Part shown: positions 2,653 through 19,224 of the stretch, piece by piece
How the letters are laid out: the number at the start of each line of letters is the position of its first letter
Numbering within the stretch: position 1 is the first letter of the stretch
NCBI GenBank assembly: GCA_048941015.1
Contig: JBHLNZ010000058.1
Coordinates: 1 to 19,224 of the forward strand
Direction: 5' to 3'
DNA from: Promethearchaeota archaeon
Lineage (GTDB): Archaea > Asgardarchaeota > Lokiarchaeia > Sigyniarchaeales > SOKP01
DNA length: 19,224 bases
The notes under the pieces: generated by a model
Told to the model about the DNA's origin: nothing
Seen by the model: the letters and a program-made list of their open reading frames with translations, nothing else
Databases searched by the model: none
Program-made: the position numbers and the translations under genes

Positions 2653-2794
2653 TACCTATAAAAATTTTATTTTTTTATTAGTTAGATATTAAGAAATTAA
2701 TTATTTTGGCAAAATCAAAATAGATTTATTATTATTTGAAAACACCTAGAAAAAGTTGTTTATAAGGCTTCTAGAATATGATATCGTGGTAATA

Positions 2795-2811
2795 TACTTA
2801 TTTTATAAGTA
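2795..2811 (+). promoter_or_regulatory. Palindrome overlapping a TATA-like box upstream of the RHH gene; candidate operator
   Basis: TACTTAT-TTT-ATAAGTA is a perfect 7-bp inverted repeat containing TTTTATAA. Confidence 0.4.
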
Positions 2812-2857
2812 GACTTGGCTCCTAAATATTAAAAAAAACGATTTAATCTCTCCCAAG

Positions 2858-3025
2858 GTGGTTTTAATAAAGCTCATAACATGTCATATTCCTGAAATGT
2901 ATCTCCAGGGGATCGAAGAACTCGTAAATATGAACTTATACCCTAATCGCTCTGAAGTAATAAGAGTTGCAATACGCGACTTGCTTAAGAGTGAATTAAG
3001 TTCAATAATTAGAAAAAAGGAATAA
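2858..3025 (+). CDS. Small ribbon-helix-helix (CopG/Arc/MetJ family) regulator, CdrS-like
   Basis: Missed by the ORF track. (M)VLIKLITCHIPEMYLQGIEELVNMNLYPNRSEVIRVAIRDLLKSELSSIIRKKE*: beta-strand LITCHIP plus the YPNRSEVIRVAIRDLL signature. Start is GTG 2858 or ATA 2867. Confidence 0.88.
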   Translation: MVLIKLITCHIPEMYLQGIEELVNMNLYPNRSEVIRVAIRDLLKSELSSIIRKKE

Positions 3026-3072
3026 TTTCATTTCCTTTTTATTCTTTTGTCTAGTAGTTCTTTAATTTTTTT
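3014..3072 (+). terminator. Putative terminator after the RHH gene
   Basis: AAAAAGGAA(3014-3022)/TTCCTTTTT(3032-3040) hairpin followed by several oligo-T tracts. Confidence 0.45.
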
Positions 3073-3189
3073 TGTGCAGGATCTTAGACTTTTTTCCTTT
3101 ATGCTTAAATAACAAAACTAATGAGTCTATTTAGTATAAATCATATTCACTAACATTGTTTATATAAATAAAAAAATAATACTCATTAT

Positions 3190-4164
3190 ATGCTCGAGAT
3201 ATTAATTTGGATATCTTTATTTTTAGGAGGATATCTTGTTATATATTTTGCTGCAGATATTTTTTTAGATAATTTAAAGAGTTTATGCTTAATTTACAAA
3301 TTATCTCCATTTATAATAGGCCTTCTAGTTCTTGGAATTGATCCAGAAGAATCCATAGCTTCGATTATCGCAGCTACAAATCAGCTTCCTTATATATCAA
3401 TCGGAAATGTAATAGGGAATTCAATTTTATCTTTATCTTTATGTTTTGCACTTCCAACTTTTTTTTATAAAATAAATTTGAAATCAATTTCTCATTTCTA
3501 CTTCATTATATTATACTCTTGTGCTATAATGATTTTATGTAGTTTCTTATTTAAATTAGGATTATTAATACTTGGTTCTGGAGCATTATTATTATACTTT
3601 ATTTACATTTTTAAGTCTTTAAAAGATATTTCTAAAAAAGGGAAATTAGAAACGATTAAAATGGAGGAAATAAGTGAACTAAATAAAGACGAGACAATCA
3701 TTGAGAGTTCAAAATACAAAAAAATCATTTTAATTATTTTTAGTTTCTCTTTTATAGTTATCGGAGGTGAATTATTGATTCTTTCAGCTGAAAATTTAAT
3801 TATTTTAACTGGTCTAAGCGAAGAATTTTTTGGATTCATAATAATTGCCTTTGTAACTAACGTTGAAGAATTAACTTTAGTTTTTAAATCAATAAAAAAA
3901 AGAAGTACAGAAATTGGTATAGGGGGAATGATTGGTAAGGTGATCTGGAACTTATCATTTACCTTTGGAGTTAGTGGAATGATTGCCTTAAATATAGAAT
4001 TTAATTATTTACTCTTTTTTAATTGGCTTATTTTAGTAATTATTATTGCTTTTTACCATTTTAGAGCAGGATATGAATCAACAACGATGATAGATCCTAT
4101 TATATTAAGCAGTTTTCTTATTATCTTCATTGTATTTAACTTAATGACCATTGTTCTGATTTGA
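3190..4164 (+). CDS. Ca2+/cation antiporter (CaCA, YrbG-like) with divergent alpha-repeats
   Basis: Two 5-TM repeats with a central hydrophilic loop; alpha-1 region GIDPEE...SIGNVIGNSI and alpha-2 region VTNVEE...GIGGMIGKVIWN. Confidence 0.82.
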   Translation: MLEILIWISLFLGGYLVIYFAADIFLDNLKSLCLIYKLSPFIIGLLVLGIDPEESIASIIAATNQLPYISIGNVIGNSILSLSLCFALPTFFYKINLKSISHFYFIILYSCAIMILCSFLFKLGLLILGSGALLLYFIYIFKSLKDISKKGKLETIKMEEISELNKDETIIESSKYKKIILIIFSFSFIVIGGELLILSAENLIILTGLSEEFFGFIIIAFVTNVEELTLVFKSIKKRSTEIGIGGMIGKVIWNLSFTFGVSGMIALNIEFNYLLFFNWLILVIIIAFYHFRAGYESTTMIDPIILSSFLIIFIVFNLMTIVLI

Positions 4165-4215
4165 ACTTCGCTGACTGAATTATTCAATTTTTTATTATTT
4201 GTATAATTATTTTAA

Positions 4216-5079
4216 ATGATGACTTTTACTCACTACGATTTTGAGTACTTTGATGTCCATACTCATTTTTTCCCCCCTCAAATATTTGAAGCAATTTGGG
4301 CTTTTTTTGAACAAAGAGACGAAAATGATCATGTTACAGGATGGCCTGTTAATTATAAGCTGACAACTAATGATTTAGTAAAAGTTTTAAAAAGAAACAA
4401 TGTAAAATATTTTGCAACTCATAATTATGCTCATAAAGTTGGTGTGGCTGAATATATAAACAATTGGACCAAAGAATTTGCATTATCGAATAAAAATATC
4501 ATTCCTTTTGGATGTGTGTGGCCAGAAGACAATAATAGATTAGAGTATACAAAAAAAATCTTTGATGAGTTTAATTTTTATGGTATAAAGATTCAACCGT
4601 TAGTACAAAAATTCTTTCTTGATGATGCTAGGATGTATGAAATCTACGATTTAATTTTTGATAAAGGAAAGTGGTTAATGGTTCATATAGGTACAGCACC
4701 ATATCGAAATCAATATGTTGGATACAAAAATTTCATAAATTTTCTAGAAAAATATCCGGATATGAATATTATTGTTGCGCATATGGGAGCCTTTGAATAT
4801 ACCAGATTTTTAAAGCTACTGGATAAGCATCCGAATCTTTATTTAGATACAGCAATGATTTATATCCCAAATAATATTTTTCCCGAAAGAGGCCCAAAAC
4901 GACCTAAACCTAAAGAGTTAATATCTTACCAAGATCGGATCCTTTTCGGTTCTGATTTTCCAAACATACCTTATGATTATGAAAATTCTACCAGGGGTTT
5001 GTTAGAATTTAATCTTCATAGAAGCTTTTATGAAAATATCTTTTTAAATAATGCTAAGCGAATTTTTAATGTGAAGTGA
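4216..5079 (+). CDS. Amidohydrolase_2 family metal-dependent TIM-barrel hydrolase
   Basis: DVHTH (HxH), GIKIQP, VHIG, AHMG, LYLDTA and ILFGSDFP motifs; C-terminal NAKRIF. Confidence 0.9.
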   Translation: MMTFTHYDFEYFDVHTHFFPPQIFEAIWAFFEQRDENDHVTGWPVNYKLTTNDLVKVLKRNNVKYFATHNYAHKVGVAEYINNWTKEFALSNKNIIPFGCVWPEDNNRLEYTKKIFDEFNFYGIKIQPLVQKFFLDDARMYEIYDLIFDKGKWLMVHIGTAPYRNQYVGYKNFINFLEKYPDMNIIVAHMGAFEYTRFLKLLDKHPNLYLDTAMIYIPNNIFPERGPKRPKPKELISYQDRILFGSDFPNIPYDYENSTRGLLEFNLHRSFYENIFLNNAKRIFNVK

Positions 5080-5105
5080 TATTTTCTAATTAAAGAGAAG
5101 TTTAA

Positions 5106-5939
5106 TTATATGATAACTAGACTCATTGACATAATAAACATCCCGGTCATAATCCCTAATATAGAATAATGCTCTTTAGCCAATGAACGAGCAACTGGTA
5201 ATAACTCATCTAATGAAATATATACCATTATACCCCCTACGACTCCTAACATGGCCCCCAACACAAAATCGTTGATGAATGGGAAAAGAATTAACCAAGT
5301 AATAATTGCCCCTAAAGGTTCGCTCATACCAGATATAAAAGACCATTTAAAAGCCTTTTTCTTGTTTCCAGTACAAGCATAAATTGGAACGGCTACAGCA
5401 ATTCCTTCAGGGATATTATGTAATGCAATAGCAACAGCCAGCAGAACCCCTAATTGAATTTCAGTAATCGCCCCAATAAAGGTTGCCATACCCTCAGGAA
5501 AGTTATGGATAAAAACACCAAAAAAGATGAAAATTGAGGTTTTCACTAAATTTACTTTCGGTTTTTCTCCTTCTTGTTTATATCTACGTCGATGACGATG
5601 TCCATAATGTAGATGTGGTTTGCATTCACCATTATTATTAGTAAGCATTTCTATAGAATCTTCAAATTCATATTCATGAGAGACTAAAACATCAATGCAA
5701 AACATAATCATCATTCCTAAAAAGAAAAAGATTAGACCCATAAATAACCCGTTTGTTACAATGCTCTCTTGTAATAATTCTACAAATGATATTAGTACCA
5801 TAACTCCCGCTGAAAATCCCATAATGAATGAAATGAATTTAGGACTCGGTTTGTGCATAAAGACTGCTATAAGACTCCCAATTGAGGTTGAAAGACCAGC
5901 GATTAAACTTAATAAAATTCCAAGTAAAAATGTCTCCAT
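5106..5939 (-). CDS. zupT: ZIP-family zinc/divalent metal transporter ZupT
   Basis: FSAGVM, HNFPEG and ALHNIPEG metal-site motifs, SGMSEPLG, SLDELLP, and a His-rich TM3-TM4 loop. Confidence 0.92.
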   Translation of the reverse strand: METFLLGILLSLIAGLSTSIGSLIAVFMHKPSPKFISFIMGFSAGVMVLISFVELLQESIVTNGLFMGLIFFFLGMMIMFCIDVLVSHEYEFEDSIEMLTNNNGECKPHLHYGHRHRRRYKQEGEKPKVNLVKTSIFIFFGVFIHNFPEGMATFIGAITEIQLGVLLAVAIALHNIPEGIAVAVPIYACTGNKKKAFKWSFISGMSEPLGAIITWLILFPFINDFVLGAMLGVVGGIMVYISLDELLPVARSLAKEHYSILGIMTGMFIMSMSLVII

Positions 5940-6073
5940 TTTTATTATCCGTCTTTTAAATTGTTTATTAGTATAATTTTATTATTATTATTGAATATTT
6001 ATAATAGAGGTTACAATATTAATTTAAACCTAATGAATAGCTATTTAATTTTTTTTAGTTAAAAATTTAAATA

Positions 6074-6091
6074 ATTTAGTTGTCCCTAAAT
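6074..6091. promoter_or_regulatory. Candidate DtxR/MntR-family metal-regulator box upstream of zupT
   Basis: ATTTAG-TTGTCC-CTAAAT inverted repeat. The minus strand reads TTAGG-GACA-ACTAA, close to TTAGG-N4-CCTAA-type boxes. Confidence 0.4.
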
Positions 6092-6323
6092 AGTTATATA
6101 GTAACTTCCTATTTAAACATTATCAAATTGAGAAAGCTTATAAAATAAACTAGATCATTTAAATTAAATAGGAGATAAAACTTATATATAATTAATTTTA
6201 ATTTAAAAAAAAAAAATCCAATTTACGTTTGAATAATCAACTTTTAATTTTTTTGTTGATACTATAAATAAGATAGATACTTTTCTTTATTAAAATTTTT
6301 TAACTGATAATATGTAATTACTA

Positions 6324-7349
6324 ATGAAACAAATAACATCCGCTGATAAACTTTTTTTTTTTGAAAGAAATTTCTTCACATTAGACGGCTTGTGGATGAT
6401 TGAGGCTGAGAAAGAATTAAATTGGCAAACAGCATTAAAAATCGATCTTGAGGTATGGAAAAACCTACTAAAAATTATAATACGAAGAATAAAAGGATAT
6501 TTACATTTAAAGGAAAACAGTTTAGCAAATTTAGTAAATATTCTTACTTTCCGGTGGTCGGTAGAAGGATGGAAATATAATGTTATAAATCTTAAGAGTA
6601 ATAAGGCAGAAATAAGAGTGAGTGCATGTCCTTATAAATTGGCTATGGATAGAAATCCTGAGCGGCATGATAAGATTGATTTAATTTGTAAAGATATGTG
6701 CATTCCATTTTATGATGCAATTGTGAAAGAATTTAATCAAGAGATTACGTTAAATAGAACCTGTTATATGGGTTTAGGAGATTCTTTCTGTGACTTTAAA
6801 TTTATGTCAAAGGAGTCAATATCAGAAGAGAATAATTTTAATTGGATTGAAGAAAGTCACAGAAAACTGACTATAGAGGATAAGTTATTTTATTTTGAAA
6901 AAAACTTTCGTACCCTTGATGGGTTATGGGTTATAGAGACTGAAAGTGAATTTAATTGGCAAACTGCTTTAAAGTTAGATATAATTGTTTGGCAGGAACT
7001 CTATAAAATAATTTTTCGAAGGGTTAAGAAGTATTTAAATTTAGAAGATAATTCGCTTTTAGATTTAGTTAAAATAATCTCATTTGTATGGAATTGTGAA
7101 GGGAATTTTCATGAAATTGTTAAAGTAAATGATAATGAGATAATTATAAATATTAATACTTGTCCATATATAGAAGCTATGCAACGTAATCCAAAAAGAC
7201 ATAATCGTATTGCTTCTATTTGTAAAGAAATGTGCATTCCTTATTTTGAACCAGTCGTAAAAGAATTTAATCCTAAAATTAAGATAGTTAGAAATAAATT
7301 TATTGGATTAGGGGATAATGTTTGTAATTTTCATTTTAAAATAGAATAA
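6324..7349 (+). CDS. Tandem-duplicated DUF6125-like (V4R/ATC-hydrolase-like) Cys-rich protein
   Basis: Two ~155-aa repeats, each DKLFxFExNFxTLDGLW...CPY...C-x3-C...GLGD-x2-C-x-F. The family name is from motif recall. Confidence 0.7.
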   Translation: MKQITSADKLFFFERNFFTLDGLWMIEAEKELNWQTALKIDLEVWKNLLKIIIRRIKGYLHLKENSLANLVNILTFRWSVEGWKYNVINLKSNKAEIRVSACPYKLAMDRNPERHDKIDLICKDMCIPFYDAIVKEFNQEITLNRTCYMGLGDSFCDFKFMSKESISEENNFNWIEESHRKLTIEDKLFYFEKNFRTLDGLWVIETESEFNWQTALKLDIIVWQELYKIIFRRVKKYLNLEDNSLLDLVKIISFVWNCEGNFHEIVKVNDNEIIININTCPYIEAMQRNPKRHNRIASICKEMCIPYFEPVVKEFNPKIKIVRNKFIGLGDNVCNFHFKIE

Positions 7350-9214
7350 ATTAGCTTAAAAAATGTGATATTTTTTTTAACTTCAGATATGATAATTTTT
7401 TGTTCTCCTTCTGAAATTTCATAAGCTTCAAAAATCCATTTATCTAATTCTCTTAAATTATGTAGATTTTGCTGGTTAATAATTCCTTCAGCTTGGAGAA
7501 GATTTTCAATAATATCATCCACTTTTTGGCTAATCTTAATCTTTAGTTCTTCATTTTCATTAATAATAGGGAGATGTCTGATCATATATTGATTTAAATT
7601 TATGGTTGTGTTATTCTGGTTATTTATTCCAAAAAGGCAATAAAATTGCATTAATGCAGAATTTAAAATGGCACATATATATTTCAATTCTAAATTATTA
7701 TCACAAGAAAGCGAATATACCGATGATGTAAAACATACATTATCTTCTGTAAAAGTAGCTTGAGGAACTATACTATTATGTTTAATCAGTAACTTTGGAC
7801 CAATGTAGTATTCATAATTTTCCCCCTTTAATACTTTTGGATCAATAAGTTCAATATTAAATGATTTATTTTTTTTAAAATAATAATAGTTAAAATCATC
7901 TTTAGCATACAAGAATAAACATGAGCCCAGTATATTATGTTTAATATGTTGCTTTATTTGCCTTAATCCTTTGCTTTCTTCGCCTCTAATCATTCTGGGA
8001 AAGCATTTTATATTTAAATAATTCAAATCTCCAATAAGTTCGATTTTATTTATGATATCATTTATTTCCAAGCTACTTTTAATTCTAATTCTATTTAGTG
8101 GAATTGTATTAGAATTACAATAAGGACATTCATTTTTAAATGTATAAGCAAAAACCTTTTTAGTTTTATCACAAAAAGGACAAGAAGAATTAATACAAAC
8201 TTTTAACTTGTCAAAATTTTGATTTTTAAATACAATAATTTCTTTATCAGGGTATTCATAGATTTTTAATTTATCTTCTTCTTTTATTCTTTTTTGATAA
8301 AAAATTATTTGAACTTCGTTTGTTGCCCTTTTAAATAAATTTGGGCCAACATCAATTATTTTTAAAAGATTAGCATTTGATAAAAAATTATTTCTAAAAT
8401 TTATATAACTTTGCCTTAAGAGAAAGCTTTTTGGTACTAAAAAACCAACAATTCCATTACACCAATTGATTGCTTTTAAGATATATGCGCAATAAATATC
8501 CTTATAAAAAATATTTTCGTTCTTTAAGAAAAATTTTTGATTTTTTGTTAAAATGTTTCCGTATGGAGGGTTTCCAACAACAATTTCAAACTTTTTTTTA
8601 ATTTTGGAAGTAAGACTATCTTCTTTTTTAATATTTGAACATAATATAGTAAAAATTTGATTTATATCGGATTTAGAGTTTAAATAATACCATCGACATA
8701 ATTTTAAAATTGTTAATTTAACTGCGGCATCATTAATATCGTATCCAAAAATATTTTCTATGAGTTTATGTCCTATTGTTGATAATTGACTTTTAAAATC
8801 TATTTTCTTAATTATATGATATAAAAGGTCAATTGCACTGACTAAAAAGACTCCTGAACCACAAGCAGGGTCGCAAATCTTAATTTTTAATAAAAGAGTA
8901 GCAATTCTATTTTGTAAATCTTCACTTAATTTAAAAAGATCTTTCACCTTATGGACAGTATTTAACTTAAAACGTTCCTTTAAATATAAAATAAATGTTT
9001 CAGAGCAAATAAAATTGGAAATAACACTTTTAGTAAAATATACTCCTTCTTTTTTTTTATTAGTATAATCTTCTAAGAATTCATTTTCAAGACTCTGAAT
9101 TGATTCTAATATCTTATGTAAAGTTTCTCTCTTATTTGATTTAAGAGCTTTCTGAAATTTTTCAAATAAATGATTTATTTTTGGAATATAATTTAGATTT
9201 TTCATACAATTCAT
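7331..9214 (-). CDS. Amino (N6-adenine) DNA methyltransferase, gamma class (TaqI/Eco57I-like), with C-terminal target recognition domain
   Basis: GVYFT (motif X), ICDPACGSGVFL (motif I), GYDIN, VVGNPPY (motif IV), and C-terminal LKYICAILNS...LPI typical of TaqI_C-like TRDs. Overlaps the convergent ORF by 19 bp. Confidence 0.9.
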   Translation of the reverse strand: MNCMKNLNYIPKINHLFEKFQKALKSNKRETLHKILESIQSLENEFLEDYTNKKKEGVYFTKSVISNFICSETFILYLKERFKLNTVHKVKDLFKLSEDLQNRIATLLLKIKICDPACGSGVFLVSAIDLLYHIIKKIDFKSQLSTIGHKLIENIFGYDINDAAVKLTILKLCRWYYLNSKSDINQIFTILCSNIKKEDSLTSKIKKKFEIVVGNPPYGNILTKNQKFFLKNENIFYKDIYCAYILKAINWCNGIVGFLVPKSFLLRQSYINFRNNFLSNANLLKIIDVGPNLFKRATNEVQIIFYQKRIKEEDKLKIYEYPDKEIIVFKNQNFDKLKVCINSSCPFCDKTKKVFAYTFKNECPYCNSNTIPLNRIRIKSSLEINDIINKIELIGDLNYLNIKCFPRMIRGEESKGLRQIKQHIKHNILGSCLFLYAKDDFNYYYFKKNKSFNIELIDPKVLKGENYEYYIGPKLLIKHNSIVPQATFTEDNVCFTSSVYSLSCDNNLELKYICAILNSALMQFYCLFGINNQNNTTINLNQYMIRHLPIINENEELKIKISQKVDDIIENLLQAEGIINQQNLHNLRELDKWIFEAYEISEGEQKIIISEVKKNITFFKLIYSILK

Positions 9215-9343
9215 TAACTTAGAACTTCTATTTCCAACGATCTTTAATAAATTTATTGAAATTTTTATATATATGAATCTTTCTTCTTATATAGTATATT
9301 CTTTATCTTTTTATAGTTAAAATTACTTTATATAATAGGGAAT

Positions 9344-9844
9344 ATGACGAATAAGGATGAAGAGAAAGATTATCACGGAGTAGCTCCAATCAAACCTATT
9401 ATTAAAAAAATGAAAAAACACTATGATAAAGACCCAAAAGATTGGAGAATCATCGGTTCTAAGGATAAAGAAGGAAATTATGATACTTTTATTACAAAAA
9501 AACCCGATGCTTATTGGTTAAAATCAAAAATGTTAAATCCTTATTCTTCATTGACTATGGGGTCAATAATTCGCAATATTGACAAAGAAATCGATGAAAA
9601 AATAGACAAAGGAAAAACTTTATCACCCGACGAGATGTATCGTCTTTTTGGAATGATTGTTCCAATTAAAAAGGATCAAAATATCATGGCTGCGGGTATT
9701 GAAAAATATTCACAACAACATGGAGATCATTTAAAAAAAGTAATTCATGATGAAAAAGATCCAAATTTAGGTTATCAGATGGCAAGAAGGATTGATGAAG
9801 AATTTACAAAAAAACATCCTCAAAGAAAGAACTTGTATATTTAA
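9344..9844 (+). CDS. Hypothetical protein (166 aa, Lys/Asp-rich, soluble)
   Basis: Long ORF with natural composition, upstream TATA (TTTATATA ~9326) and AGGGA before the ATG; no family recognised. Confidence 0.75.
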   Translation: MTNKDEEKDYHGVAPIKPIIKKMKKHYDKDPKDWRIIGSKDKEGNYDTFITKKPDAYWLKSKMLNPYSSLTMGSIIRNIDKEIDEKIDKGKTLSPDEMYRLFGMIVPIKKDQNIMAAGIEKYSQQHGDHLKKVIHDEKDPNLGYQMARRIDEEFTKKHPQRKNLYI

Positions 9845-9883
9845 AGATCGATAATTAAAAAAAGAAATTTAATACCATAGAAA

Positions 9884-10300
9884 TTATACCTTACTTTTTA
9901 TCATTTCTAGATCTTCTTTTCTTTTTATGATAGGAAAATTACTGGAATAATTACTTGTATTATTTATAAGTTCTGATATTAATGCATTTATCTTTTCTGG
10001 GCCTGATTTTCCTTCAATAGTTTTTGTAAACTCTTTTAATGAGAGAACATTTAAATCCTCAACATAAAAAGATATGCCTTTTTCTACCTCTTCAAGGAGA
10101 AATTGATAAGATAATTCTGCATCTCTTTCAGTTTTTAGCAATGGTTCATCAGGATCATCAAAAGTATAAGATATTTCAGTCCAACGATTTCCACTGGAAT
10201 CTACAGGCACCATACCAAAGATGTAATCAGAAGTATAGAGCCAAATAGGAGTGCCGTTATCATATGATGTGTCAACAATACTTTTAAATTCGTCGCTCAT
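9884..10300 (-). CDS. Hypothetical protein (138 aa, acidic)
   Basis: ORF with globular-looking sequence and an upstream TATA-like tract; no family recognised. Confidence 0.75.
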   Translation of the reverse strand: MSDEFKSIVDTSYDNGTPIWLYTSDYIFGMVPVDSSGNRWTEISYTFDDPDEPLLKTERDAELSYQFLLEEVEKGISFYVEDLNVLSLKEFTKTIEGKSGPEKINALISELINNTSNYSSNFPIIKRKEDLEMIKSKV

Positions 10301-10453
10301 ACTAAATCATTTTTTAGGTACTATTTTTATTTCTTTTTAGTATATATATTAAGAAAGTACTTTTACTATTATAATTTTAGAAAAATTATTTGAATCTTAT
10401 CTTTTCGATAAAGTTATAGAAGCTTTTTTAATAATAAGAAAATAATTATAAAT

Positions 10454-11215
10454 ATGCGCCAACTTGATTATGCAAACTTAAGCCTCAAGATTCAAAATTG
10501 GATAAAAAGTTATATCAGTTCTGCGAACGCTGATGGAGTAATCATTGGTTTAAGTGGAGGGATTGATAGTGCTGTCACTGCTTCTTTATGTATTAGAGCT
10601 CTTGGAAGTGAGTGTGTTATAGCTTTATGTTTACCTTGCGAATCAATTTTACAAGATATAGAAGATGCAAATTTGGTTGCTGATTCTTTAGGATTAGAAC
10701 TTGAGACAATAGACTTAAGTTCAGTTTATCATGAATTTTTAAGAGTGGCTGATACAATAACTCAACCTAACCAGATCGCAAAAGCTAATTTAAAACCAAG
10801 GTTAAGGATGATGACTTTATATTTTGTAGGTCAATCGAGAGGTAAATATTTGGTGGTTGGAACAGGTAATCGAGCTGAACTGGCAATCGGTTATTTTACA
10901 AAATATGGAGATGGTGGAGTGGATTTTGAACCATTGGGAGGAGTATATAAATGTGAAGTTAGAAAAATCGCCAAAGTTTTAAAGATTCCCGAAAAAATAA
11001 TTAATAAGCCCCCTTCTCCCGGATTATGGATTGGTCAAACAGATGAGGGAGAAATAGGATTAAAGTACGATATAATTGATGAAATTTTGTACAGAATTGA
11101 CTATAATCTGAGTCTCGAAGGCTTAGATCAAATAAGTGTACAAAAAGTTAAAATGTTGATGAAATCAGCGGAACATAAGATAAAATTGGCCCCAATATAT
11201 CAATTAAAGAAATAA
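10454..11215 (+). CDS. nadE: NH3-dependent NAD+ synthetase
   Basis: GLSGGIDS PP-loop, NLKPRLRM, GTGNRAE, GYFTKYGDG, KPPSPGLW and QTDE motifs; no glutaminase domain. Confidence 0.96.
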   Translation: MRQLDYANLSLKIQNWIKSYISSANADGVIIGLSGGIDSAVTASLCIRALGSECVIALCLPCESILQDIEDANLVADSLGLELETIDLSSVYHEFLRVADTITQPNQIAKANLKPRLRMMTLYFVGQSRGKYLVVGTGNRAELAIGYFTKYGDGGVDFEPLGGVYKCEVRKIAKVLKIPEKIINKPPSPGLWIGQTDEGEIGLKYDIIDEILYRIDYNLSLEGLDQISVQKVKMLMKSAEHKIKLAPIYQLKK

Positions 11216-11231
11216 GAGTACTCAAAAGCTG

Positions 11232-12617
11232 TTACATGCTTGAAATAATTCTTCTTATATTGTTAATTCTTGTAGTTATTTCATCTAATTTTTTCTTAAG
11301 AATTCCACTTTGCCTGTTGTATTCTGAATCTGCAATAGATCCCTTATTATAGCTTGCATCTATCTCTTTAAAGTTCCTCTCAATTGAATATCTTCTTCCT
11401 TCAAGAGCAATTAATTCTTGATATAATGAATCTTTATCATTAGGTAATTTGTCAGCATCATAGGTTTCAATATCGCTAATATTAGGTTCATTTGCAGAGT
11501 TAAAATCAACAAAAGGGCTTGCTTTAGTTTCATCTTGCATAATTCCTTTTTGTTTAATTTTAATTTCATCCTCTTCAATATTAGTTATTTCTTGTTTAAT
11601 TTCCGCTTTTGGTTTTGACTTATCTGATGATTTTTCTCCAACAGATGCGAAAACATTAAATAAATCGGTAGTACTTGATTGAATTGACTCCGATTCTATT
11701 TCTTCTATTCTAACGGAAGTAATTTTCGGTTTTTCCATTGATATTTTGCCTTTTTCTTTTCTTTCTGGCACTTCTTTAGGTTCGAATACACTAAGCGGTT
11801 TTTCTGGAATAACTGATGTTACTTTTCGCTTTCCTGCTGTTAATGGTCGATCTTTTGATTCTTCAATAACCATAGGAGTAATTTTAGGTACCTTTTTCGG
11901 AATAGGAGTTAGCTTTTGTTCTTCCATTTTTTTTGTTTCAGGTTTAGATATTTGAGGAATAGGAGCTAATTTCTTTTTTACTGGTTCTTGAAACTCTGTA
12001 GGCTTTTTTTCTATTGATTTTGATTTGCTATCTATTTTGGGGCCAATTATTGGCTTTTTAATAACAGGGATTTTGATCTTGGGAGGAGGTAATCTGCTTT
12101 CTTTTTTAAGAATAATTTTCTCAACTTTTTTCTTTTGACTCATCTTCGCAAGAGTCTCATCTTTTTTCTCTAATTCTTTTTTAAGTTCTTCAATCTTTCC
12201 TCTTAATCCATTAATTTCTCCTTTAAACTGTTCTGATACTTTATCAACAATTTCGGTTAAATCTATTTCAGTTTTTTCAATCACCTTTTTAGATGCCACA
12301 TCTTCTATTTCAGCTTCAGGTTCTTGAACTTCTTTTTTATGTGTGGGAATATTTAGCATACTTCCGATTAACTTAGGGATTGAAGTCTCTGAAAACCATA
12401 GATCAAGGGGATCCCAATCTTCTAATTCTTTTAAAATATGTTCAATTTCATACCTATACTCTGGTTGTGAATTATTATTTTTTAAATCACGAAAAAGATC
12501 AATTAGTGTTTCTCTTGCTTCAATTTCATCATCGGGAGACGGTTCTCCCTCCATTAAAAACAAATAAAGGTCCTTTACTTCTTTAAGCATCGATTCAAAC
12601 TTTTTTTCTTCGCTCAT
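11232..12617 (-). CDS. Hypothetical protein: N-terminal helical domain, coiled coil, Pro/Lys/Glu-rich linker and C-terminal steadiness-box/SHOCT-like helical hairpin
   Basis: Heptad region at about aa 120-165, low-complexity aa 170-390, and C-terminal 65 aa SLYQELIALE...NKGSIADSEY. Confidence 0.75.
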   Translation of the reverse strand: MSEEKKFESMLKEVKDLYLFLMEGEPSPDDEIEARETLIDLFRDLKNNNSQPEYRYEIEHILKELEDWDPLDLWFSETSIPKLIGSMLNIPTHKKEVQEPEAEIEDVASKKVIEKTEIDLTEIVDKVSEQFKGEINGLRGKIEELKKELEKKDETLAKMSQKKKVEKIILKKESRLPPPKIKIPVIKKPIIGPKIDSKSKSIEKKPTEFQEPVKKKLAPIPQISKPETKKMEEQKLTPIPKKVPKITPMVIEESKDRPLTAGKRKVTSVIPEKPLSVFEPKEVPERKEKGKISMEKPKITSVRIEEIESESIQSSTTDLFNVFASVGEKSSDKSKPKAEIKQEITNIEEDEIKIKQKGIMQDETKASPFVDFNSANEPNISDIETYDADKLPNDKDSLYQELIALEGRRYSIERNFKEIDASYNKGSIADSEYNRQSGILKKKLDEITTRINNIRRIISSM

Positions 12618-12772
12618 ACAGATTTCTATGTTGATTTATTGTTAATTCTTAGCTATTAATTTCTCTTTAAGTATTAAATAACTTTTCATTAATTTATTTT
12701 TTTGTAATATTTTAAGACTATAGTTTTAAAAGATATAAATAGCGCTTTTTTTAACATTCATGTCAAAATTTC

Positions 12773-12864
12773 AATCTCAAGATATATGGCATTTTTAAGA
12801 ATTGTTATATCTTAAGATTCTCAAAGGATTTTTTCAAGAAGGTTAGGAAACTAGGAAATCCTTT
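12773..12864. repeat. Two adjacent inverted repeats in the divergent intergenic region
   Basis: AATCTCAAGATATA(12773-12786)/TATATCTTAAGATT(12806-12819), 13/14 match; AAAGGATTT(12823-12831)/AAATCCTTT(12856-12864), abutting TTTATATA. Confidence 0.55.
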
Positions 12865-12951
12865 ATATACTAATATGACAATAATAGGATTATAATATTT
12901 TTTTCTTTAGTTGGGATATAAGATAGCAATAATGAATAATGAGTTTTAATA

Positions 12952-14187
12952 GTGATTTTATTTATGCAAACAAGAAATAAGATTGGTTTGGTTGTTTTAA
13001 TTAACTTTATTCTCCCTTTACATGTTTTATTATATTTTGGAGCCGTCAATATGTATTTCGATTACGCAATGAATTTATGCTACCTATCTTTTTTAGTACT
13101 AGGAAGTAAAGATTTAGAGACGGATAAAAGGGAATTCAAACGATTAACCCTTTTGAAGATTTTTCCCGTGATACTCTACTTTTATTATATTATAACTCAA
13201 GTAGGATATCCTTTTATTAATATGATATTGGGGTATAGCCTAGATTTTTTCTTTCTCAATTTCATATTATCTAACGCCCCAGATTTATATTGGGTAATAC
13301 GAATTATATCCTATACTGCTACATTTCTTTTAATTTTTGGCTTAATGTTGTTTGGATTTAATAACAGAAAATACTATGGAAATTACATGATCGCATTCGC
13401 AGTTTTGTATTTAGTAGACAGGGTATTTAGTTTAATTAACGCTATTACTTTATCATATAACGCTACATTTTATCTCCTCTTTCTTTATGCCACTTTTATT
13501 TTAGTGTCAATTTCAGCTAGTTATTTGGTATTTTTTGGACAGAGAATAAGAAATATTTATTTCACTTTAAGTGGAATTATGTTCTTTGGAGCTATTTTTA
13601 TTAGGTGGATATTTACTTTTATAATTTTTGTCGTTAGCCAAATAGAAATTTATTCTGTCATAGCGCTTATACTTTCTTTAATTGGAGTGGTGATTTCAGG
13701 GCGTTTTATAGAATTAGGCGGTACTTTCAGGCGAGGGATCCGTATCTTTATCAGTCATGCTGTTGCGGACTATAATAGATACAGGATTAATGACATTGCA
13801 CAATTCTTAGAAAACCAAAAAGGAATACGCTATGTATTTTACTGTGAAAATGATTTAACAGGAAATATTGATGCTTGGATGCAAAAAACGGTACCACGTT
13901 GTCATTTGCTAATATTCATTTCGACTGAAAAATCATTAAATTCGGCTGACTGCACTACTGAATTAGGCCTTGCTCGAGATAGAGGGCTGACAATCATTCC
14001 CATATTGGGAGTTGGGCTAAGTTGGGATGATTTGAAAAAGCTAGATGTTCATAGAGAAATTGGCGCGAGTTTCGATCCAATGGAATTTGAAGATTTTTGC
14101 AATAAATTGTACCAACAAATCCAAATATATAAGAAATCATTCAATCAAATATCTGACAACGACCAACACCAGAATAAGGAGAGTTAA
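12952..14187 (+). CDS. Multipass membrane protein (about 8 TM) with C-terminal TIR domain
   Basis: Hydrophobic aa 10-252, then TIR motifs RIFISHA...LLIFISTEKSLNSADCTTELGLA...IIPI. Start may be ATG 12964. Confidence 0.85.
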   Translation: MILFMQTRNKIGLVVLINFILPLHVLLYFGAVNMYFDYAMNLCYLSFLVLGSKDLETDKREFKRLTLLKIFPVILYFYYIITQVGYPFINMILGYSLDFFFLNFILSNAPDLYWVIRIISYTATFLLIFGLMLFGFNNRKYYGNYMIAFAVLYLVDRVFSLINAITLSYNATFYLLFLYATFILVSISASYLVFFGQRIRNIYFTLSGIMFFGAIFIRWIFTFIIFVVSQIEIYSVIALILSLIGVVISGRFIELGGTFRRGIRIFISHAVADYNRYRINDIAQFLENQKGIRYVFYCENDLTGNIDAWMQKTVPRCHLLIFISTEKSLNSADCTTELGLARDRGLTIIPILGVGLSWDDLKKLDVHREIGASFDPMEFEDFCNKLYQQIQIYKKSFNQISDNDQHQNKES

Positions 14188-14273
14188 TTTATTATTCTTT
14201 ATGTTATAAATGAATTGATCTTTTTCGTCAAATGAGCATGTCAAAAATGTAAGAATCTTTTAAATCTGGGGGT

Positions 14274-14305
14274 AAAAGTTTAAATATTAGATAAAGATCT
14301 TATCT
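14274..14305 (+). promoter_or_regulatory. BRE-TATA promoter followed by a palindromic operator-like site
   Basis: AAAAG + TTTAAATA (14279-14286), then AGATAA-N5-TTATCT (14289-14305). Predicted TSS is about 14308-14312. Confidence 0.6.
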
Positions 14306-14306
14306 T

Positions 14307-14555
14307 ATAACAATGATCTCGAATAATACTGCTACAAGAACATTGGGAAGGGTATTAATATCCCTAAGTATTATTATCGTAGTAGTATTAATTATCTAAG
14401 CAAAACAAATCCAACTTCTCTTTTTCTTATAAGCTTTTCATGGATTTGTTTGCTTCGAGCATGTTATTTATTTGAAAAAGGGATTGGTGGGTTCGTTTCG
14501 CTTTTAAGAAGTATACAATAAAAAGTATTAGAATAAACAAAGAAAAGGAAGTAAA
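14307..14555 (+). promoter_or_regulatory. Structured 5' leader RNA with mutually exclusive helices (attenuator-like)
   Basis: Helices 14307-14323/14454-14467, 14324-14335/14379-14390 and 14398-14413/14441-14455; alternatives 14398-14426/14474-14503 and 14414-14427/14541-14552. Confidence 0.65.
14313..14399 (+). CDS. 28-aa Ile/Leu/Val-rich leader peptide (uORF) MISNNTATRTLGRVLISLSIIIVVVLII
   Basis: ATG about 27 nt after the TATA box (near-leaderless). 13 of the last 15 codons are Ile/Leu/Val; TAA at 14397-14399. Confidence 0.62.
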   Translation: MISNNTATRTLGRVLISLSIIIVVVLII

Positions 14556-16007
14556 ATGAAATATAAAAATAGTGAAACGAAACATCAGGTAATTGAATAC
14601 TTACAATCATATTTTCTTGGTATTGGTTTTAAAGAACTAAACGACCTTGTAATAAAAAAAAACAATTGTGTTTTTTGTGGTACTTGTACCTCGTTATGTC
14701 CTCGTATTGGGATGAATGGAAAAGAACCCACACTATTAGAATATGATCCGGAATGTTCCACCTGTTTTAGGTATTGTCCAAGAACATACTTTCCTGAAGA
14801 AATGTTTAAAAAAGAATTATTTCATGATGGGGCAAACAATAGTTATGCATTAGGATATTACCAAAAATCTCTTGCTGCTAAAAGCAATGATGATAATATA
14901 ATGAGACTTGCTCAAAATGGAGGCGTTGTTTCTACATTACTCATACATGCTTTGGATACTGGTTTAATAGATGGAGTTATTCTTACCGATAGAGATGAAA
15001 ATTGGTATCCAAAACCTATAATAGCACGAACTTCCAAAGAAATCTTGTCATGTACAGGTTCTAAATATACAATTGCCCCAACCCTAAATACTTATAAGGA
15101 CGCAATAAATGAATTAAAACTAGAAAAATTAGCATTTGTTGGGATGCCCTGTCAAATCAAAGCTGTAAGGAAATTACAATTGTTTTCTCCCCTCTCAGAA
15201 GAATATGGAAAATTTTCATTAATTATAGGACTTTATTGTTTCTCAAATTATTCGTATGATTTGATGAAGTTACTTGTTCAAGGAGAACTTGGAATTCCAC
15301 TCAGCAATGTTAAGAAAATCGATATTTCACAGGGTAGATTTTATGTATATACATATGATGGATTAATTAAAGAAGTTCCAATAAAGGAAACTAAGGAATA
15401 TAGTTGGTCAAGTTGCCAATATTGTAAAGATTATTGTGCTGAATTTGCAGATATTTCTATTGGTAGTGTGGGAGCTCCCGAGAATGATTGGAATAGCGTA
15501 TTATTACGGACGGATAGAGGTGTAAAATTATTTAATGATGCAGTAGAAGCTAAGAAAATAGTATCTTCCAATAGTATTGATCTATTTAAAATCGAGAAAG
15601 AAGCAATAAGAAAGAAAACAAGAGTAACTCAAATAGATAAACAAATATTAAGCGCTATGCAGTTCTTAAATATTTCTGATTTCGAAATAAAGACTTATAC
15701 AACTCTAATGTCATTAGGAAATGCAAGTGAAACGATATTAAGTAAAATTATGAACACAGAAGAAATTTTTGTTAGAAACGCACTTCAAAAGCTGAAGAGA
15801 CGAGAATGGGTTATAGCTGCTAATGGATCATACAGTACTGTTAATCCCAGTATAGTTATTGAAAATGAAATATATAAGTTAAAGAACAATTTCTTTAAAA
15901 ATATTGAGAAGCTAAAAACTGAAGTTCTTACTAATTTAGAAGCTCTATATGTACAAAATAATTTTAATAATGTACGATTTGATGAAAATCTGGATTTAAT
16001 CAAATGA
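14556..16007 (+). CDS. FrhB/FdhB-family F420-binding Fe-S flavoprotein with N-terminal ferredoxin and C-terminal TrmB-like winged HTH
   Basis: CVFCGTCTSLCP and CSTCFRYCP ferredoxin motifs; AQNGGVVS, GSKY, VGMPCQ, IGLYC, CQYCKD and ADISIGSVG FrhB motifs. From about aa 368, LNISDFEIKTYTTLMSLG...VRNALQKLKRREWV resembles TrmB HTH. Confidence 0.88.
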   Translation: MKYKNSETKHQVIEYLQSYFLGIGFKELNDLVIKKNNCVFCGTCTSLCPRIGMNGKEPTLLEYDPECSTCFRYCPRTYFPEEMFKKELFHDGANNSYALGYYQKSLAAKSNDDNIMRLAQNGGVVSTLLIHALDTGLIDGVILTDRDENWYPKPIIARTSKEILSCTGSKYTIAPTLNTYKDAINELKLEKLAFVGMPCQIKAVRKLQLFSPLSEEYGKFSLIIGLYCFSNYSYDLMKLLVQGELGIPLSNVKKIDISQGRFYVYTYDGLIKEVPIKETKEYSWSSCQYCKDYCAEFADISIGSVGAPENDWNSVLLRTDRGVKLFNDAVEAKKIVSSNSIDLFKIEKEAIRKKTRVTQIDKQILSAMQFLNISDFEIKTYTTLMSLGNASETILSKIMNTEEIFVRNALQKLKRREWVIAANGSYSTVNPSIVIENEIYKLKNNFFKNIEKLKTEVLTNLEALYVQNNFNNVRFDENLDLIK

Positions 16008-16085
16008 TAATCTTAAAAACGATTATTTAGCACTCTTTCAAGAAGTTGTGAATGACAAAAATCAACCCCAGGGAAAAATGGTTAA

Positions 16086-16727
16086 CTAAAATTGTTGACT
16101 TGGTTTTCTTAACATACACCAAAGGGGAACATCGGTTTCAGGGATTATTGTATATTCAAGTATTTCGAATCCGTATTTCTGGTAAATTGACACACTCTTT
16201 TCTGTATTAGTTTCCACATAAATCGGTAATCCGTCGCTTTCAACTGTTTTTATCATAGTACGTATTAATAAGCCCCCATATCCTTTTCCTTGTTCTTCTG
16301 GTTTAACAGCAATATTTTGAAAATACCAATGGTCATAAGGCGCAAGCTCTTTATGTTTTTCTTCCTCATACTTAAAAACGGTCATAGTTCTTTTCAATGC
16401 TTTTAATTTTAAACCTACTTTACGCATTGCATAAAAACCTCCATATCTCATCATAGTCCAAGTAGATGGATAAGTTTTTTTAGGAGGAAGCCATATTGTA
16501 ATTCCTTCTAAGTTCTTAGAAGTTGCATAAGCTAATCCATGTTTTATTCCGTAATTATAGATCATATAAAATCCATATTGGAGCTTTTCCTTTCTTTCTT
16601 TCTCATCGGGATATGTAAAGATCGTGATGGGATCGTTTTGAAAAGCATTACCTGCCACTATACACGCCTCTTTAACATCATTCGGCGTTAATTTATAAAG
16701 ATTGTCCAAATTAATATTTGTATTCAT
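16086..16727 (-). CDS. GNAT family N-acetyltransferase
   Basis: HWYFQNIAVKPEEQGKGYG acetyl-CoA motif A, YVET, and YQKYGFE motif B. Start is more likely ATG 16727 than 16772. Confidence 0.9.
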   Translation of the reverse strand: MNTNINLDNLYKLTPNDVKEACIVAGNAFQNDPITIFTYPDEKERKEKLQYGFYMIYNYGIKHGLAYATSKNLEGITIWLPPKKTYPSTWTMMRYGGFYAMRKVGLKLKALKRTMTVFKYEEEKHKELAPYDHWYFQNIAVKPEEQGKGYGGLLIRTMIKTVESDGLPIYVETNTEKSVSIYQKYGFEILEYTIIPETDVPLWCMLRKPSQQF

Positions 16728-16836
16728 ATTAGAATTTAGAAAAAAGTCGATTATAAAAAATCTGTAGTCCAATAATTGTTGGATCTACATAGTGAAAAAT
16801 GGGGATTTTAGAGCTTTATCTTAATATTTTCATTTC

Positions 16837-17679
16837 TTAAGGAATCTCAACACCTGGTACTTCAACTTTTAAAAATTCAATTCTTCCACTTGATCTTTTA
16901 CCCTCTAAATATTGAGTGGTGCAAAGAAAAAGAGTTCTTCCATCATCTCCACCCAGAGCGCAAGCATAAACATTTGTACCTTTTACTTTAATAGTAGAAG
17001 TGATTTCACCTCCTTCCAAAACACGTAAGACTTCTGCTTTGGATGGATTTGCGACCCAAATGGCACCTTCTTCATCAAGACATATACCATCTGGGGAAAA
17101 GTCTTTAAATTTCGCCCAAATTCTTCGATTTATTAGATTTCCTGAATTTTCAATATCAAAAGCAGTCAATTTACTTCCAAAAGTTTCTGCTACAATAAAA
17201 GTTTTGCAATCGGGAGTCACAATACATCCATTGGGAAAAATAAGATTTTCTGCAACTATTCTTGCATCCCCCTCTTTTGTTACCAGAATGATGCATGTGG
17301 GTTCAGCTGGGGAATCAAGGGATTTAGTACCCCAATTTCCTATGTAAGTTCGTCCATGAATATCGGTTACGGAATCATTGCAGTTATATTCTGTAAAGTT
17401 GCTTAAATCCGCATGAATCTTCAATCCTTTTGGATCTAAAAGCATTAGGTAACGTCTTTGCATTGAAACTATAAGCATCCTACCATCATTCAAAAAACCC
17501 AATCCCGAAGGAGAATCCTGCAGTTCTACGATAATTTCTGATTTGCCTTTTTCATCAACGACGATGACTTTTTTTCCAGTGAAATCTGAAAAGAACAACT
17601 TTCCGTTTCGCCAACGAGGGGCCTCTGGAAATCCAAGACCAGATAATAATATTTTGGTTTCCATTTTCATATTTATCAT
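16837..17679 (-). CDS. SMP-30/gluconolactonase/LRE family beta-propeller
   Basis: FPEAPRW, NCND, FPNG and PDGICLDEEGAIWVA motifs. Start could be one of three Met codons. Confidence 0.92.
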   Translation of the reverse strand: MINMKMETKILLSGLGFPEAPRWRNGKLFFSDFTGKKVIVVDEKGKSEIIVELQDSPSGLGFLNDGRMLIVSMQRRYLMLLDPKGLKIHADLSNFTEYNCNDSVTDIHGRTYIGNWGTKSLDSPAEPTCIILVTKEGDARIVAENLIFPNGCIVTPDCKTFIVAETFGSKLTAFDIENSGNLINRRIWAKFKDFSPDGICLDEEGAIWVANPSKAEVLRVLEGGEITSTIKVKGTNVYACALGGDDGRTLFLCTTQYLEGKRSSGRIEFLKVEVPGVEIP

Positions 17680-17855
17680 TTTGATTTTTATTTTAATAAA
17701 GTTACCTTTCTATTTATTCTCCAAAACGATAATCTGCACACTGGAAGGTAATAATAATATTAATAAATTGTAAATAAATTTTTATATGAGATTTTCAATA
17801 CTATTAACTAATCCAGAAGTATATTAATAAATCGATACTATAAAAGGGAATAAGG

Positions 17856-18311
17856 ATGATTTGTTCTAAATGTGGAGTTAAATTAAGTGATTCCGATCAT
17901 AGATATTGTCAAAATTGCGGAGCTGAAATTATAACTCATGCTAAAACAACTAATCTTACTGATAAGCCTCAAATTGAGCCTGAGAAACCAAAGGAAGTTG
18001 AAGCTAATAATTTATGGATTGGATTTATCTTGATTGCTATTGGAATCCTTATCATCGGAATGGGTATAGTTGGATATTACATAGAAAAAGTAAATTGTTA
18101 TAACCCAGCGGTGGGTTGTGGTATCTTGACGGGTGGGGGGGGCATGGGTCTTTTTGGAGTTAACTTTTTAGGCTTGTTTGTTATTATAGGAGGTATCCTA
18201 TTTCCATATAGGAAACATAGAATAGCCAAAAGGATTTTGCCTCTTTTGTTTATTATTGTTCCAACACTAGCTTTTTTTCTGTCATTTATAATTGTTAGCT
18301 TTAATTTCTAA
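17856..18311 (+). CDS. Zinc-ribbon domain membrane protein
   Basis: N-terminal CSKCG-x9-CQNCG, charged linker and three hydrophobic segments; purine-rich RBS-like AAGGGAATAAGG. Confidence 0.85.
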   Translation: MICSKCGVKLSDSDHRYCQNCGAEIITHAKTTNLTDKPQIEPEKPKEVEANNLWIGFILIAIGILIIGMGIVGYYIEKVNCYNPAVGCGILTGGGGMGLFGVNFLGLFVIIGGILFPYRKHRIAKRILPLLFIIVPTLAFFLSFIIVSFNF

Positions 18312-18366
18312 TAATTAAAAACTTCGATTTTATAAAAATTCTTCATTAAGTTAGAATTATGAGCTA

Positions 18367-18786
18367 TTATTCAATTTTCCTTGAAATTCTTGATAAGGGA
18401 TGCCCTTTTGCTTTTATCTCTAATTCATTAAACCAACCAAAAGGAGGTCTAAGAACAGTGTATCGCTCTTTCAAGAGCACTTCTAAATCTTTTAAAATCC
18501 TTAAACTGAATTCTGGACTACTTAAATCACCAAAAAGATGAGCAAATGATAAGAGTACAATATTTGAAACTTTAATCTGCTTTATAATTTTTTCAATTTC
18601 TATTACTGCTTTCTCCAAAAGTTTCGAATTAGTTTCGTCTTTCTTCTCTGTACTAATAAAAAGCAAGATGAGATTGTCAAGAGCATTTTCTTTGTTGATA
18701 TCTGTTAATTCCTCGAAAACTTTTGAACGACTTCTCTTAGTGGTTTTATATTTAAAATAATCACAATGAAAAGATAAAAATCTCAT
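18367..18786 (-). CDS. Free-standing archaeal threonyl-tRNA synthetase editing domain (ThrRS-ed, DTD-like fold)
   Basis: MRFLSFHCDYFKY, FAHL, RPPFGW and KGHPLSRISR match the archaeal ThrRS editing motifs (YAHL, RAPFG, KGHPL). Confidence 0.9.
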   Translation of the reverse strand: MRFLSFHCDYFKYKTTKRSRSKVFEELTDINKENALDNLILLFISTEKKDETNSKLLEKAVIEIEKIIKQIKVSNIVLLSFAHLFGDLSSPEFSLRILKDLEVLLKERYTVLRPPFGWFNELEIKAKGHPLSRISRKIE

Positions 18787-18940
18787 AGTTAGGACTTTAT
18801 ATGATCTTATTTAATAATATTTTAATTATTAAAACTCTAATATTCTAAGAAAATCTAGTTTCTTCATATAGAAAGCAACTTTTATTGAAATTGATTTTTT
18901 AAAATTTAACAATTAGCTTATTATACGCTAGATGGAATTT

Positions 18941-19224
18941 TTAAGTCAAAATAAAACTCAAAGAGGGCCAACTATTATCTCCATCTGTTAAATTCATATC
19001 AATTCTGGGTTGCGTTCTATTAAAAATGTCTGTTGCTCTCACGTATATAGTGTTGATTGCTGTTTTCATTTTAAAAAAAGTGAGTTTTATTTCCCAAAAA
19101 ACCCAAACGTTGTCAAAATCAACGCTTTTAATTATATTTGCTTGATGCCAATCCAGTCCATCATTAATGGTATATTCTACTTTTGATATTCTAGTTCCCC
19201 CATATGCTGCACCCCCAATTAAAA
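18941..19224 (-). CDS. C-terminus of a sulfite-oxidase-family molybdoenzyme (Mo-co dimerisation Ig-like domain); 5' part outside window
   Basis: Not in the ORF track. Manual translation: LIGGAAYGGTRISKVEYTINDGLDWHQA...VWVFWEI...IYVRATDIFNRTQP...WPSLSFILT*; TAA at 18943-18941. Confidence 0.75.
   Translation of the reverse strand, partial: LIGGAAYGGTRISKVEYTINDGLDWHQANIIKSVDFDNVWVFWEIKLTFFKMKTAINTIYVRATDIFNRTQPRIDMNLTDGDNSWPSLSFILT

Follow-up and report, generated by a model that had tools for sequence, protein, structure and literature searches.

A candidate ribosome-mediated attenuator upstream of an FrhB-TrmB gene in an Asgard archaeon

To our knowledge, leader-peptide attenuation, a textbook example of how transcription and translation can be coupled, has been described in bacteria alone. 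In Escherichia coli it is represented by ilvL/ivbL, leuL, trpL and pheM-pheST. Related forms of control from the 5' end are the translational attenuation of ermC and cat, where the ribosome on a leader peptide frees a sequestered ribosome-binding site (RBS), as well as the T-box riboswitches, which act from the 5' leaders of bacterial aminoacyl-tRNA synthetase (aaRS) genes including leuS and read the tRNA with a specifier loop. Attenuators of amino-acid genes have also been predicted in Actinobacteria (PMC1262725, in the available part of that source). Here we describe an RNA element in a stretch of 19,224 nucleotides from a Promethearchaeota archaeon (assembly GCA_048941015.1, contig JBHLNZ010000058.1, positions 1 to 19,224 of the forward strand), hereafter the window, which corresponds to contig C134 of a host genome of 3.59 Mb in 144 contigs with about 30% G+C. 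The element lies on the + strand in the gap at 14188-14555, between a TIR-domain gene and a gene for a 483-aa FrhB-TrmB protein. It combines a small open reading frame (ORF) with a helix P2 and a shared RNA arm, S2, which pairs with either of two partners, S3 (helix P3) or S4; a U-rich tract and an anti-U segment, A, form a further pairing. We consider it likely that the element is a ribosome-mediated attenuator in general, and put forward only tentatively its full version, a leader-peptide attenuator gating an oligo-U terminator, in which a plentiful amino acid means that the gene is ON.

The likeness to the bacterial attenuators lies in a small leader ORF that strings together codons for the amino acids to be sensed, its tail resembling that of ilvL, in the stop codon at the edge of a shared segment, and in exclusive helices backed by covariation. 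With pheM-pheST the system shares an aaRS as target, here in its sister copies. It differs from them in its Asgard archaeal host and predicted leaderless leader mRNA, in an oligo-U tract that is looped out by one helix and base-paired in the alternative one, in a shared segment that picks between two 3' partners (S3/S4) instead of a 1:2/2:3/3:4 chain, in sensing codons that sit in the 3' arm of the separate helix P2, and in the lack of an Rfam match to any bacterial leader family. The element would work like a bacterial leader-peptide attenuator but fails one defining feature, the hairpin-plus-U terminator.

As in ermC and cat, the position of the ribosome on the leader ORF would remodel the downstream RNA, but no conserved helix with the main RBS is present. 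Amino-acid-specific control of an aaRS gene from the 5' leader, as proposed here, recalls the T-boxes, yet there is no T-box fold and specificity would reside in translated codons. The resemblance to archaeal oligo-U/FttA termination consists in a conserved U5 plus U4 tract 22-40 nt past the stop codon, a position like that seen where ordinary genes end in this genome, whereas the tract here is framed by conserved arms able to expose or conceal it and is found between a mini-ORF and the gene that follows. Regulated read-through of this kind is absent from the oligo-U/FttA papers found, as far as their available text goes (PMC8716108; PMC11616081), and full-text literature searches, whose coverage was incomplete, returned no archaeal leader-peptide attenuator.

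Leader reading frame, promoter and helices

A BLAST search with the stretch returned same-genus relatives at 67-78% identity ahead of FrhB-TrmB orthologues, and a second version ahead of another gene; genome searches were made with a covariance model of 135 positions. In total 105 loci were collected, and the comparative structure tests were run on 101 loci, all from one Asgard family. The sequence stretches quoted in an earlier note on this DNA were all found where it had placed them.

The leader ORF of the window (14313-14399, + strand; MISNNTATRTLGRVLISLSIIIVVVLII) consists of 28 codons followed by UAA. It is conserved at the same place across the loci, an ATG ORF of 20-32 codons being present in 104 of 105, which bears out the leader ORF of the earlier note. 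The distance from ATG to S2 spans 64-96 nt, yet in 90 of 100 loci it equals 0 mod 3. In 88 of 100 the foot of S2 directly adjoins the stop codon, which is TAA in 47 loci, TGA in 44 and TAG in 9. Judged from this comparison the frame of the leader ORF is under constraint, and translation of the leader is predicted. Its last nine codons specify Ile, Val and Leu, and we take codons 20-28 (I20-I28, 14370-14396) to be the sensing ones. The sole locus without an ATG leader ORF (L084, on G125:C48) lies 5' of an FrhB-TrmB orthologue, carries an RNA element scoring 79 bits and could be a decayed copy or a copy with another start codon.

Upstream of the ORF, the B recognition element and TATA box (BRE/TATA) of the leader transcript (14274-14286, + strand; AAAAG TTTAAATA) show position-specific conservation in the 101 loci. 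The TATA box begins at -34 relative to the leader ATG in 50 of them, as it does in the window copy, and at -31 in another 14. If the spacing between TATA box and start site is the one usual in archaea, transcription is predicted to begin near 14308-14311, 2-5 nt before the AUG, so that the leader mRNA would be leaderless or nearly so. The earlier note had proposed a helix P1 (14307-14323/14454-14467) burying this AUG. Among the 101 sequences 54% of its cells are paired, compared with 55.5% in shuffles, and P1 is unlikely because it needs bases from 14307, at or before the predicted transcript start. In the stretch from the switch to the main gene the loci share no TATA box at a fixed position, which falls short of proving the absence of a start site; we rejected an internal promoter on this ground, and the main gene is probably transcribed through the element.

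For the comparative tests each locus was cut into ten segments, and duplex energies were calculated for all 45 segment pairs, with cognate partners and with partners permuted among loci. These per-sequence tests replaced counting by column, since the ORF and S4 regions align poorly. Co-evolution is confined to four of the 45 pairs, S2:S3 with a z of -16.3, the arms of P2 with -14.8, U:A with -11.5 and S2:S4 with -9.5. The fifth-best pair has a z of -2.4, and the control S3:S4 one of -0.1. Covariation among homologues, by which the earlier note would have its switch judged, is thus found for four helices.

P2 pairs a 5' arm in codons 4-8 (14324-14335, + strand; UAAUACUGCUAC; N-N-T-A-T) with a 3' arm of Val-Val-Val-Leu codons (14379-14390, + strand; GUAGUAGUAUUA). 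The helix was named in the earlier note and is part of the minimum free energy (MFE) structure. Its mean energy over the 101 loci is -15.0 kcal/mol, with a z of -3.6 relative to shuffles. The cognate arms reach -15.05 kcal/mol, which 0 of 2000 permutations attain, compared with -10.65 for permuted partners. Compensatory variants occur, for example AAAACUACUACU/AGUAGUAGUUUU, and the G-U pairs fit the + strand only; these wobbles and the ORF fix the + strand as the RNA strand, in agreement with the earlier note. Across loci, codons 4-8 pair with Ala/Val/Leu codons near the end of the ORF, the 3' arm ending 2-10 nt before the stop in most of them, and neither arm has another segment to pair with. 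Co-evolution of the two arms explains why the peptide begins with a conserved S-N-N-T-A.

The remaining helices are built on the shared arm S2 (14398-14413, + strand; AAGCAAAACAAAUCCA), whose first two bases are the final two of the stop codon. With S3 (14441-14455, + strand; UGGAUUUGUUUGCUU) it forms P3, whose loop holds the U-rich tract (14414-14438, + strand; ACUUCUCUUUUUCUUAUAAGCUUUU), with U5 at 14421-14425 and U4 at 14435-14438 in near-invariant columns. In the 101-sequence alignment 82% of the cells of P3 are paired and 13 of its 15 pairs vary on both sides, and it beats 500 of 500 shuffles as well as all slid controls (maximum 55%). In the alternative fold S2 pairs with S4 (14488-14503, + strand; UGGGUUCGUUUCGCUU) and the U tract with the anti-U segment A (14470-14483, + strand; AUUUGAAAAAGGGA), the two stacked as one long helix. 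The core pairs of U:A are kept in 80-99% of sequences. This fold is the MFE structure of the window copy; it averages -22.8 kcal/mol, compared with -10.8 for shuffles and -18.3 for P3, and is stabler than P3 in 85 of 101 loci. Both P3 and the long-range alternative, which the earlier note had drawn as 14398-14426 with 14474-14503, are in this way upheld, the latter with both of its parts (S2:S4 and U:A) co-evolving. From the sequences, S2:S3 and S2:S4 are mutually exclusive, the one displaying the oligo-U tract and the other masking it.

The + strand MFE of 14300-14560 contains P2 and the long-range alternative pairing without P3, and RNAalifold on 15 sequences returns seven pairs of P3 only. 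Column counting of the alternative fold gives 57% of cells paired against 65% at slide -1, the S4 region being poorly aligned.

Leader codons and the genes downstream

The element is always upstream of a same-strand gene, and its targets fall into three classes. About 70 loci precede a leucyl-tRNA synthetase (LeuRS) gene, which is of three kinds, archaeal, divergent archaeal and bacterial type (NCBIfam). A further 18, the window included, precede FrhB-TrmB, and 11 precede a strong Shine-Dalgarno (SD) motif and two small ORFs of unknown family. Codon bias was computed for each class over the last 12 leader residues. Before LeuRS of all three kinds the leader tail has 56-58% Leu, at most 4% Ile and 8-14% Val; before FrhB-TrmB it has 22% Leu, 40% Ile and 17% Val; and before the small ORFs 39% Leu, 2% Ile and 39% Val, against a genome background of 10% Leu, 10.5% Ile and 5% Val. 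The Leu leaders ahead of LeuRS genes of three origins constitute the strongest single argument that the codons are read and matter. These Leu-rich sister elements, the key to the comparison, do not figure in the earlier note, and the Rfam search that it proposed gave no match.

We also have to consider that the element may be a structured cis-acting RNA that senses a ligand other than the ribosome, either a protein such as LeuRS or a tRNA as in the T-boxes, with the ORF a by-product of P2. The S-N-N-T-A peptide start can indeed be explained by P2 pairing and not by the peptide, A/U-rich arms easily yield Leu, Ile and Val codons at 30% GC, and the UGGU/GGUGG of S4 could putatively pair with a tRNA 3' end. 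We regard this as quite improbable: over 100 loci the start codon and frame are preserved, length varies by whole codons and the stop stays in place, the U/A repeats are not read in their Tyr frame (UAU), Leu goes with LeuRS in three independent gene types, and Rfam returns neither a T-box nor any other match. An origin of the Leu and Ile specificities by frame shift within UUA/AUU repeats was considered and dropped, as the alignment points to codon replacement with no clean shift.

The codon bias bears equally on the idea that the ORF is a small gene in its own right, encoding a hydrophobic membrane peptide that could be type I toxin-like or of another sort, ending in an oligo-U terminator of its own and having unrelated genes downstream. 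The hydrophobic tail of the window peptide is long enough for a membrane helix, and the T5 run 22-28 nt past the stop resembles an ordinary gene end of the window's genome. However, one LeuRS subgroup has charged, amphipathic peptides (...VKEFLRKRVLLQALLQLLL), the amino-acid bias tracks the downstream gene, conserved competing helices sit beyond the supposed terminator, and each genome has just 1-2 of the elements, every one of them oriented alike ahead of a gene. The fold-back P1, on which the earlier note had based its likeness to type I toxin mRNAs, is not conserved, and that likeness is not supported by peptides of which one subgroup is not membrane-like. An independent gene appears very improbable to us. 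A scan of the window's genome for mini-ORFs with tails rich in a single residue gave 140 candidates, mostly noise; three were inspected and none was attenuator-like.

Ribosome position, the oligo-U tract and polarity

The folding of growing transcripts was calculated at equilibrium with a ribosome footprint of 28 nt masked. With no ribosome, or with one stalled at codons 20-24, P3 forms once S3 emerges (0.87). A ribosome on the last codon lowers P3 to 0.40 and one on the stop lowers it to 0.02, and U:A then reaches 0.97-0.99 once A emerges. When S4 is out, the alternative fold is the equilibrium structure whatever the position of the ribosome. In this model P3 would be transient, forming first and only with a late or absent ribosome. 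As P2 has no alternative partner, the leader can act on the switch only through ribosome occupancy of S2. The proposal of the earlier note that ribosome position selects the helix finds partial support, in that the helices exclude each other, the stop is placed such that the ribosome would cover S2, and masked folding agrees; the RBS masking that it joined to this is unsupported.

The mechanism that we favour would operate as follows. Transcription would start a few bases before the leader AUG, and one ribosome would translate the 28-codon leader behind the advancing polymerase; P2 would close the fully made leader and thereby limit later initiation. A ribosome that is on time would cover S2 as S3 emerges, no hairpin would form, and U:A and then S2:S4 would follow, with read-through into FrhB-TrmB. 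A ribosome held on hungry Ile, Val or Leu codons, or absent, would leave S2:S3 to form first and the U tract single-stranded. The exposed tract would cause the transcript to be ended or cut, by intrinsic termination or by FttA/aCPSF1. We prefer this polarity because of the geometry of the element and the masked-folding results.

Alternatively, the same attenuator could work with bacterial polarity, a serious rival that we regard as somewhat less likely. A stall on the last Ile/Val/Leu codons, close to the stop, would then keep the base of S2 covered for long and block S2:S3, allowing U:A and S2:S4 to pair and switching the gene ON; given plentiful charged tRNA the ribosome would leave fast, the polymerase would pause on the U tract, S2:S3 would form and the transcript would be ended. 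The sensing codons reach right to the stop, past what P2 needs, and a mask at the last codon already cuts P3 to 0.40 with U:A at 0.97. An archaeal-type LeuRS with the element beside a bacterial-type one without it looks like a conditionally induced second copy, and the logic would be homeostatic as in pheM-pheST. Spare aaRS copies induced by starvation are known from bacteria (thrZ and tyrZ, under T-box control). On the other hand, several sensing codons lie 5-12 codons before the stop, and a stall there frees S2 (P3 0.87), which would turn the gene OFF on severe starvation; this polarity also requires a long polymerase pause on the U tract, which is postulated.

Both polarities assign the U tract a role in termination. 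In the window's genome the first T5 runs after the stops of long ORFs are concentrated at 0-30 nt, and a T5 run lies within 100 nt in 63% of 3' flanks compared with 29% inside genes, a placement that is consistent with oligo-T terminators in this lineage. FttA/aCPSF1 is reported to bind single-stranded U-rich nascent RNA (PMC11616081), and termination by it depends on U-rich RNA (PMC8716108, in its available part). The U tract is therefore best seen as a candidate archaeal oligo-U termination or FttA signal whose exposure would be set by the switch; no U run is conserved after S3 or S4.

Several observations weigh against the mechanism that we favour. Its polarity is the reverse of bacterial aaRS control and fits poorly with a leader on an apparent second LeuRS copy. 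In the window copy an Ile/Val/Leu leader precedes FrhB-TrmB, for which no link between amino acid and gene is known. A terminator scan of 13900-14900 found no bacterial-type hairpin-plus-U terminator. As the structure-defined FttA terminator site comprises only the last 36 nt of nascent RNA (PMC11616081), FttA may act before either fold exists, which weakens both polarities. Masking of the U tract may not hinge on the choice between S3 and S4 either, since U:A can coexist with S2 bound to S3 or to S4, making a pseudoknot with P3 or prolonging S2:S4. The window copy by itself folds no better than expected, a check named in the earlier note that turned out unfavourable (+ strand z -1.54, with 16 of 200 shuffles as good; - strand z -2.77), so that support rests on comparison with relatives. 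Finally, the one RNA-library match (metatranscriptome run X20) is a single contig of 151 nt that comes from the Val-type copy of a relative and runs from the end of the leader across the U tract and S3 to A; it gives no ends or strand and could be DNA carry-over, and we give it weight neither way.

The switch might instead act post-transcriptionally, affecting how the main mRNA is translated or how stable it is, by pairing of the U tract with the RBS or through the free GGUGG of S4 as a standby site. S4 carries a conserved SD-like motif (GGUGG; AGGUGG at 14488-14494 of the window, AGGUGAU in some loci) just about 42 nt before the main start, and the majority of LeuRS starts are without an SD of their own (present in 17 of 71). 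The pairing of the U tract with the RBS, first suggested in the earlier note, reaches -10.6 kcal/mol in the window, placing it among the best 4% of start regions in the genome, and its pairing with the RBS of the same locus is on the whole a little stronger than background (-6.5 vs -4.7; better in 64 of 89 loci). Yet no segment shows cognate-specific pairing to the RBS or to the region after S4 (U:post z -1.7), the U tract is invariant while the RBS regions vary, and a pyrimidine tract pairs with any purine-rich RBS. RBS masking thus finds no cognate signal across loci, and we consider a post-transcriptional switch unlikely. In a few loci the frame is open from the SD-like motif of S4 into LeuRS, which we take as chance.

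Taken in its widest form, our proposal is one to which we give about an even chance: that this is the first ribosome-mediated attenuation described in archaea, and in Asgard archaea in particular, in which the timing of a pioneer ribosome at the stop abutting S2 chooses between folds that display or hide an oligo-U tract, and which has been re-aimed by swaps of the codon run (Leu, Ile/Val, Val/Leu) to LeuRS of three origins, to FrhB-TrmB and to a pair of small proteins. If true, ribosome-polymerase coupling serves gene control in Asgard archaea, the relatives of eukaryotes, and the element offers a natural test bed for the regulation of archaeal oligo-U or FttA termination. It would also tie the FrhB-TrmB fusion and two unknown small proteins to the supply of branched-chain amino acids, a lead to their function.

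Locus and distribution of the element

The 5' neighbour of the leader stretch is the TIR-domain gene (12952-14187, + strand). Downstream of the switch, the main gene (14556-16007, + strand) encodes a fusion of a ferredoxin motif, FrhB_N/FrhB_C and a TrmB winged helix according to Pfam and NCBIfam. A search for tRNA genes found none. Across the whole window Rfam gave no match at the gathering score, whether to the T-box or to the leaders of the Leu, Thr, His, Trp and Phe type; when E values up to 10 were admitted in 14150-14650, the best matches were unrelated and far under threshold. Annotation would benefit from the inclusion of these mini-ORFs with their RNA, which are missing from Rfam and from gene calls.

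By the covariance model 33 of the 42 genus genomes and 86 of the 131 family genomes carry the element, with 1-2 copies in each, and none of 19 genomes searched from three other families of the same order does. The window's genome has a single copy by both BLAST and covariance model. Dispersal as a miniature inverted-repeat transposable element, which the earlier note had raised, is rejected on this distribution: one copy in the window's genome and one or two in each relative stand at the same kinds of locus. At least seven more FrhB-like paralogues occur in the window's genome (C85, C27, C131, C137, C77, C3), with 27-32% identity to the FrhB-TrmB gene, and a covariance-model search found the leader element at none of them.

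In the relatives checked, a bacterial-type LeuRS without the element is accompanied by an archaeal-type LeuRS with it. The window's genome, a 95% complete assembly, has only the bacterial type (C64:122668-124779), and no leader lies upstream of it. The open frame of this LeuRS has 717 aa, compared with 927-935 aa in four relatives, so a frameshift or an error of assembly may have truncated the gene.

The targets of the Val/Leu-rich leaders, exemplified by L083:1310-1477:- and L083:878-1060:- and found likewise at L103, L105, L113, L114, L115, L108 and L120, match no NCBIfam family in either small ORF. The first of the two has a strong SD and 41-56 aa and ends in ...F(I/P)PAE...E(K)IAW; the second has 52-68 aa and ends in ...GE(L/I)EIEDEI(K/R)MGYLWKKY.... 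Beyond both lies a convergent aminotransferase-like gene. FrhB-TrmB orthologues in relatives have kept the element upstream, and near orthologues occur in metagenome-assembled genomes deposited as Candidatus Hodarchaeota and Promethearchaeota.

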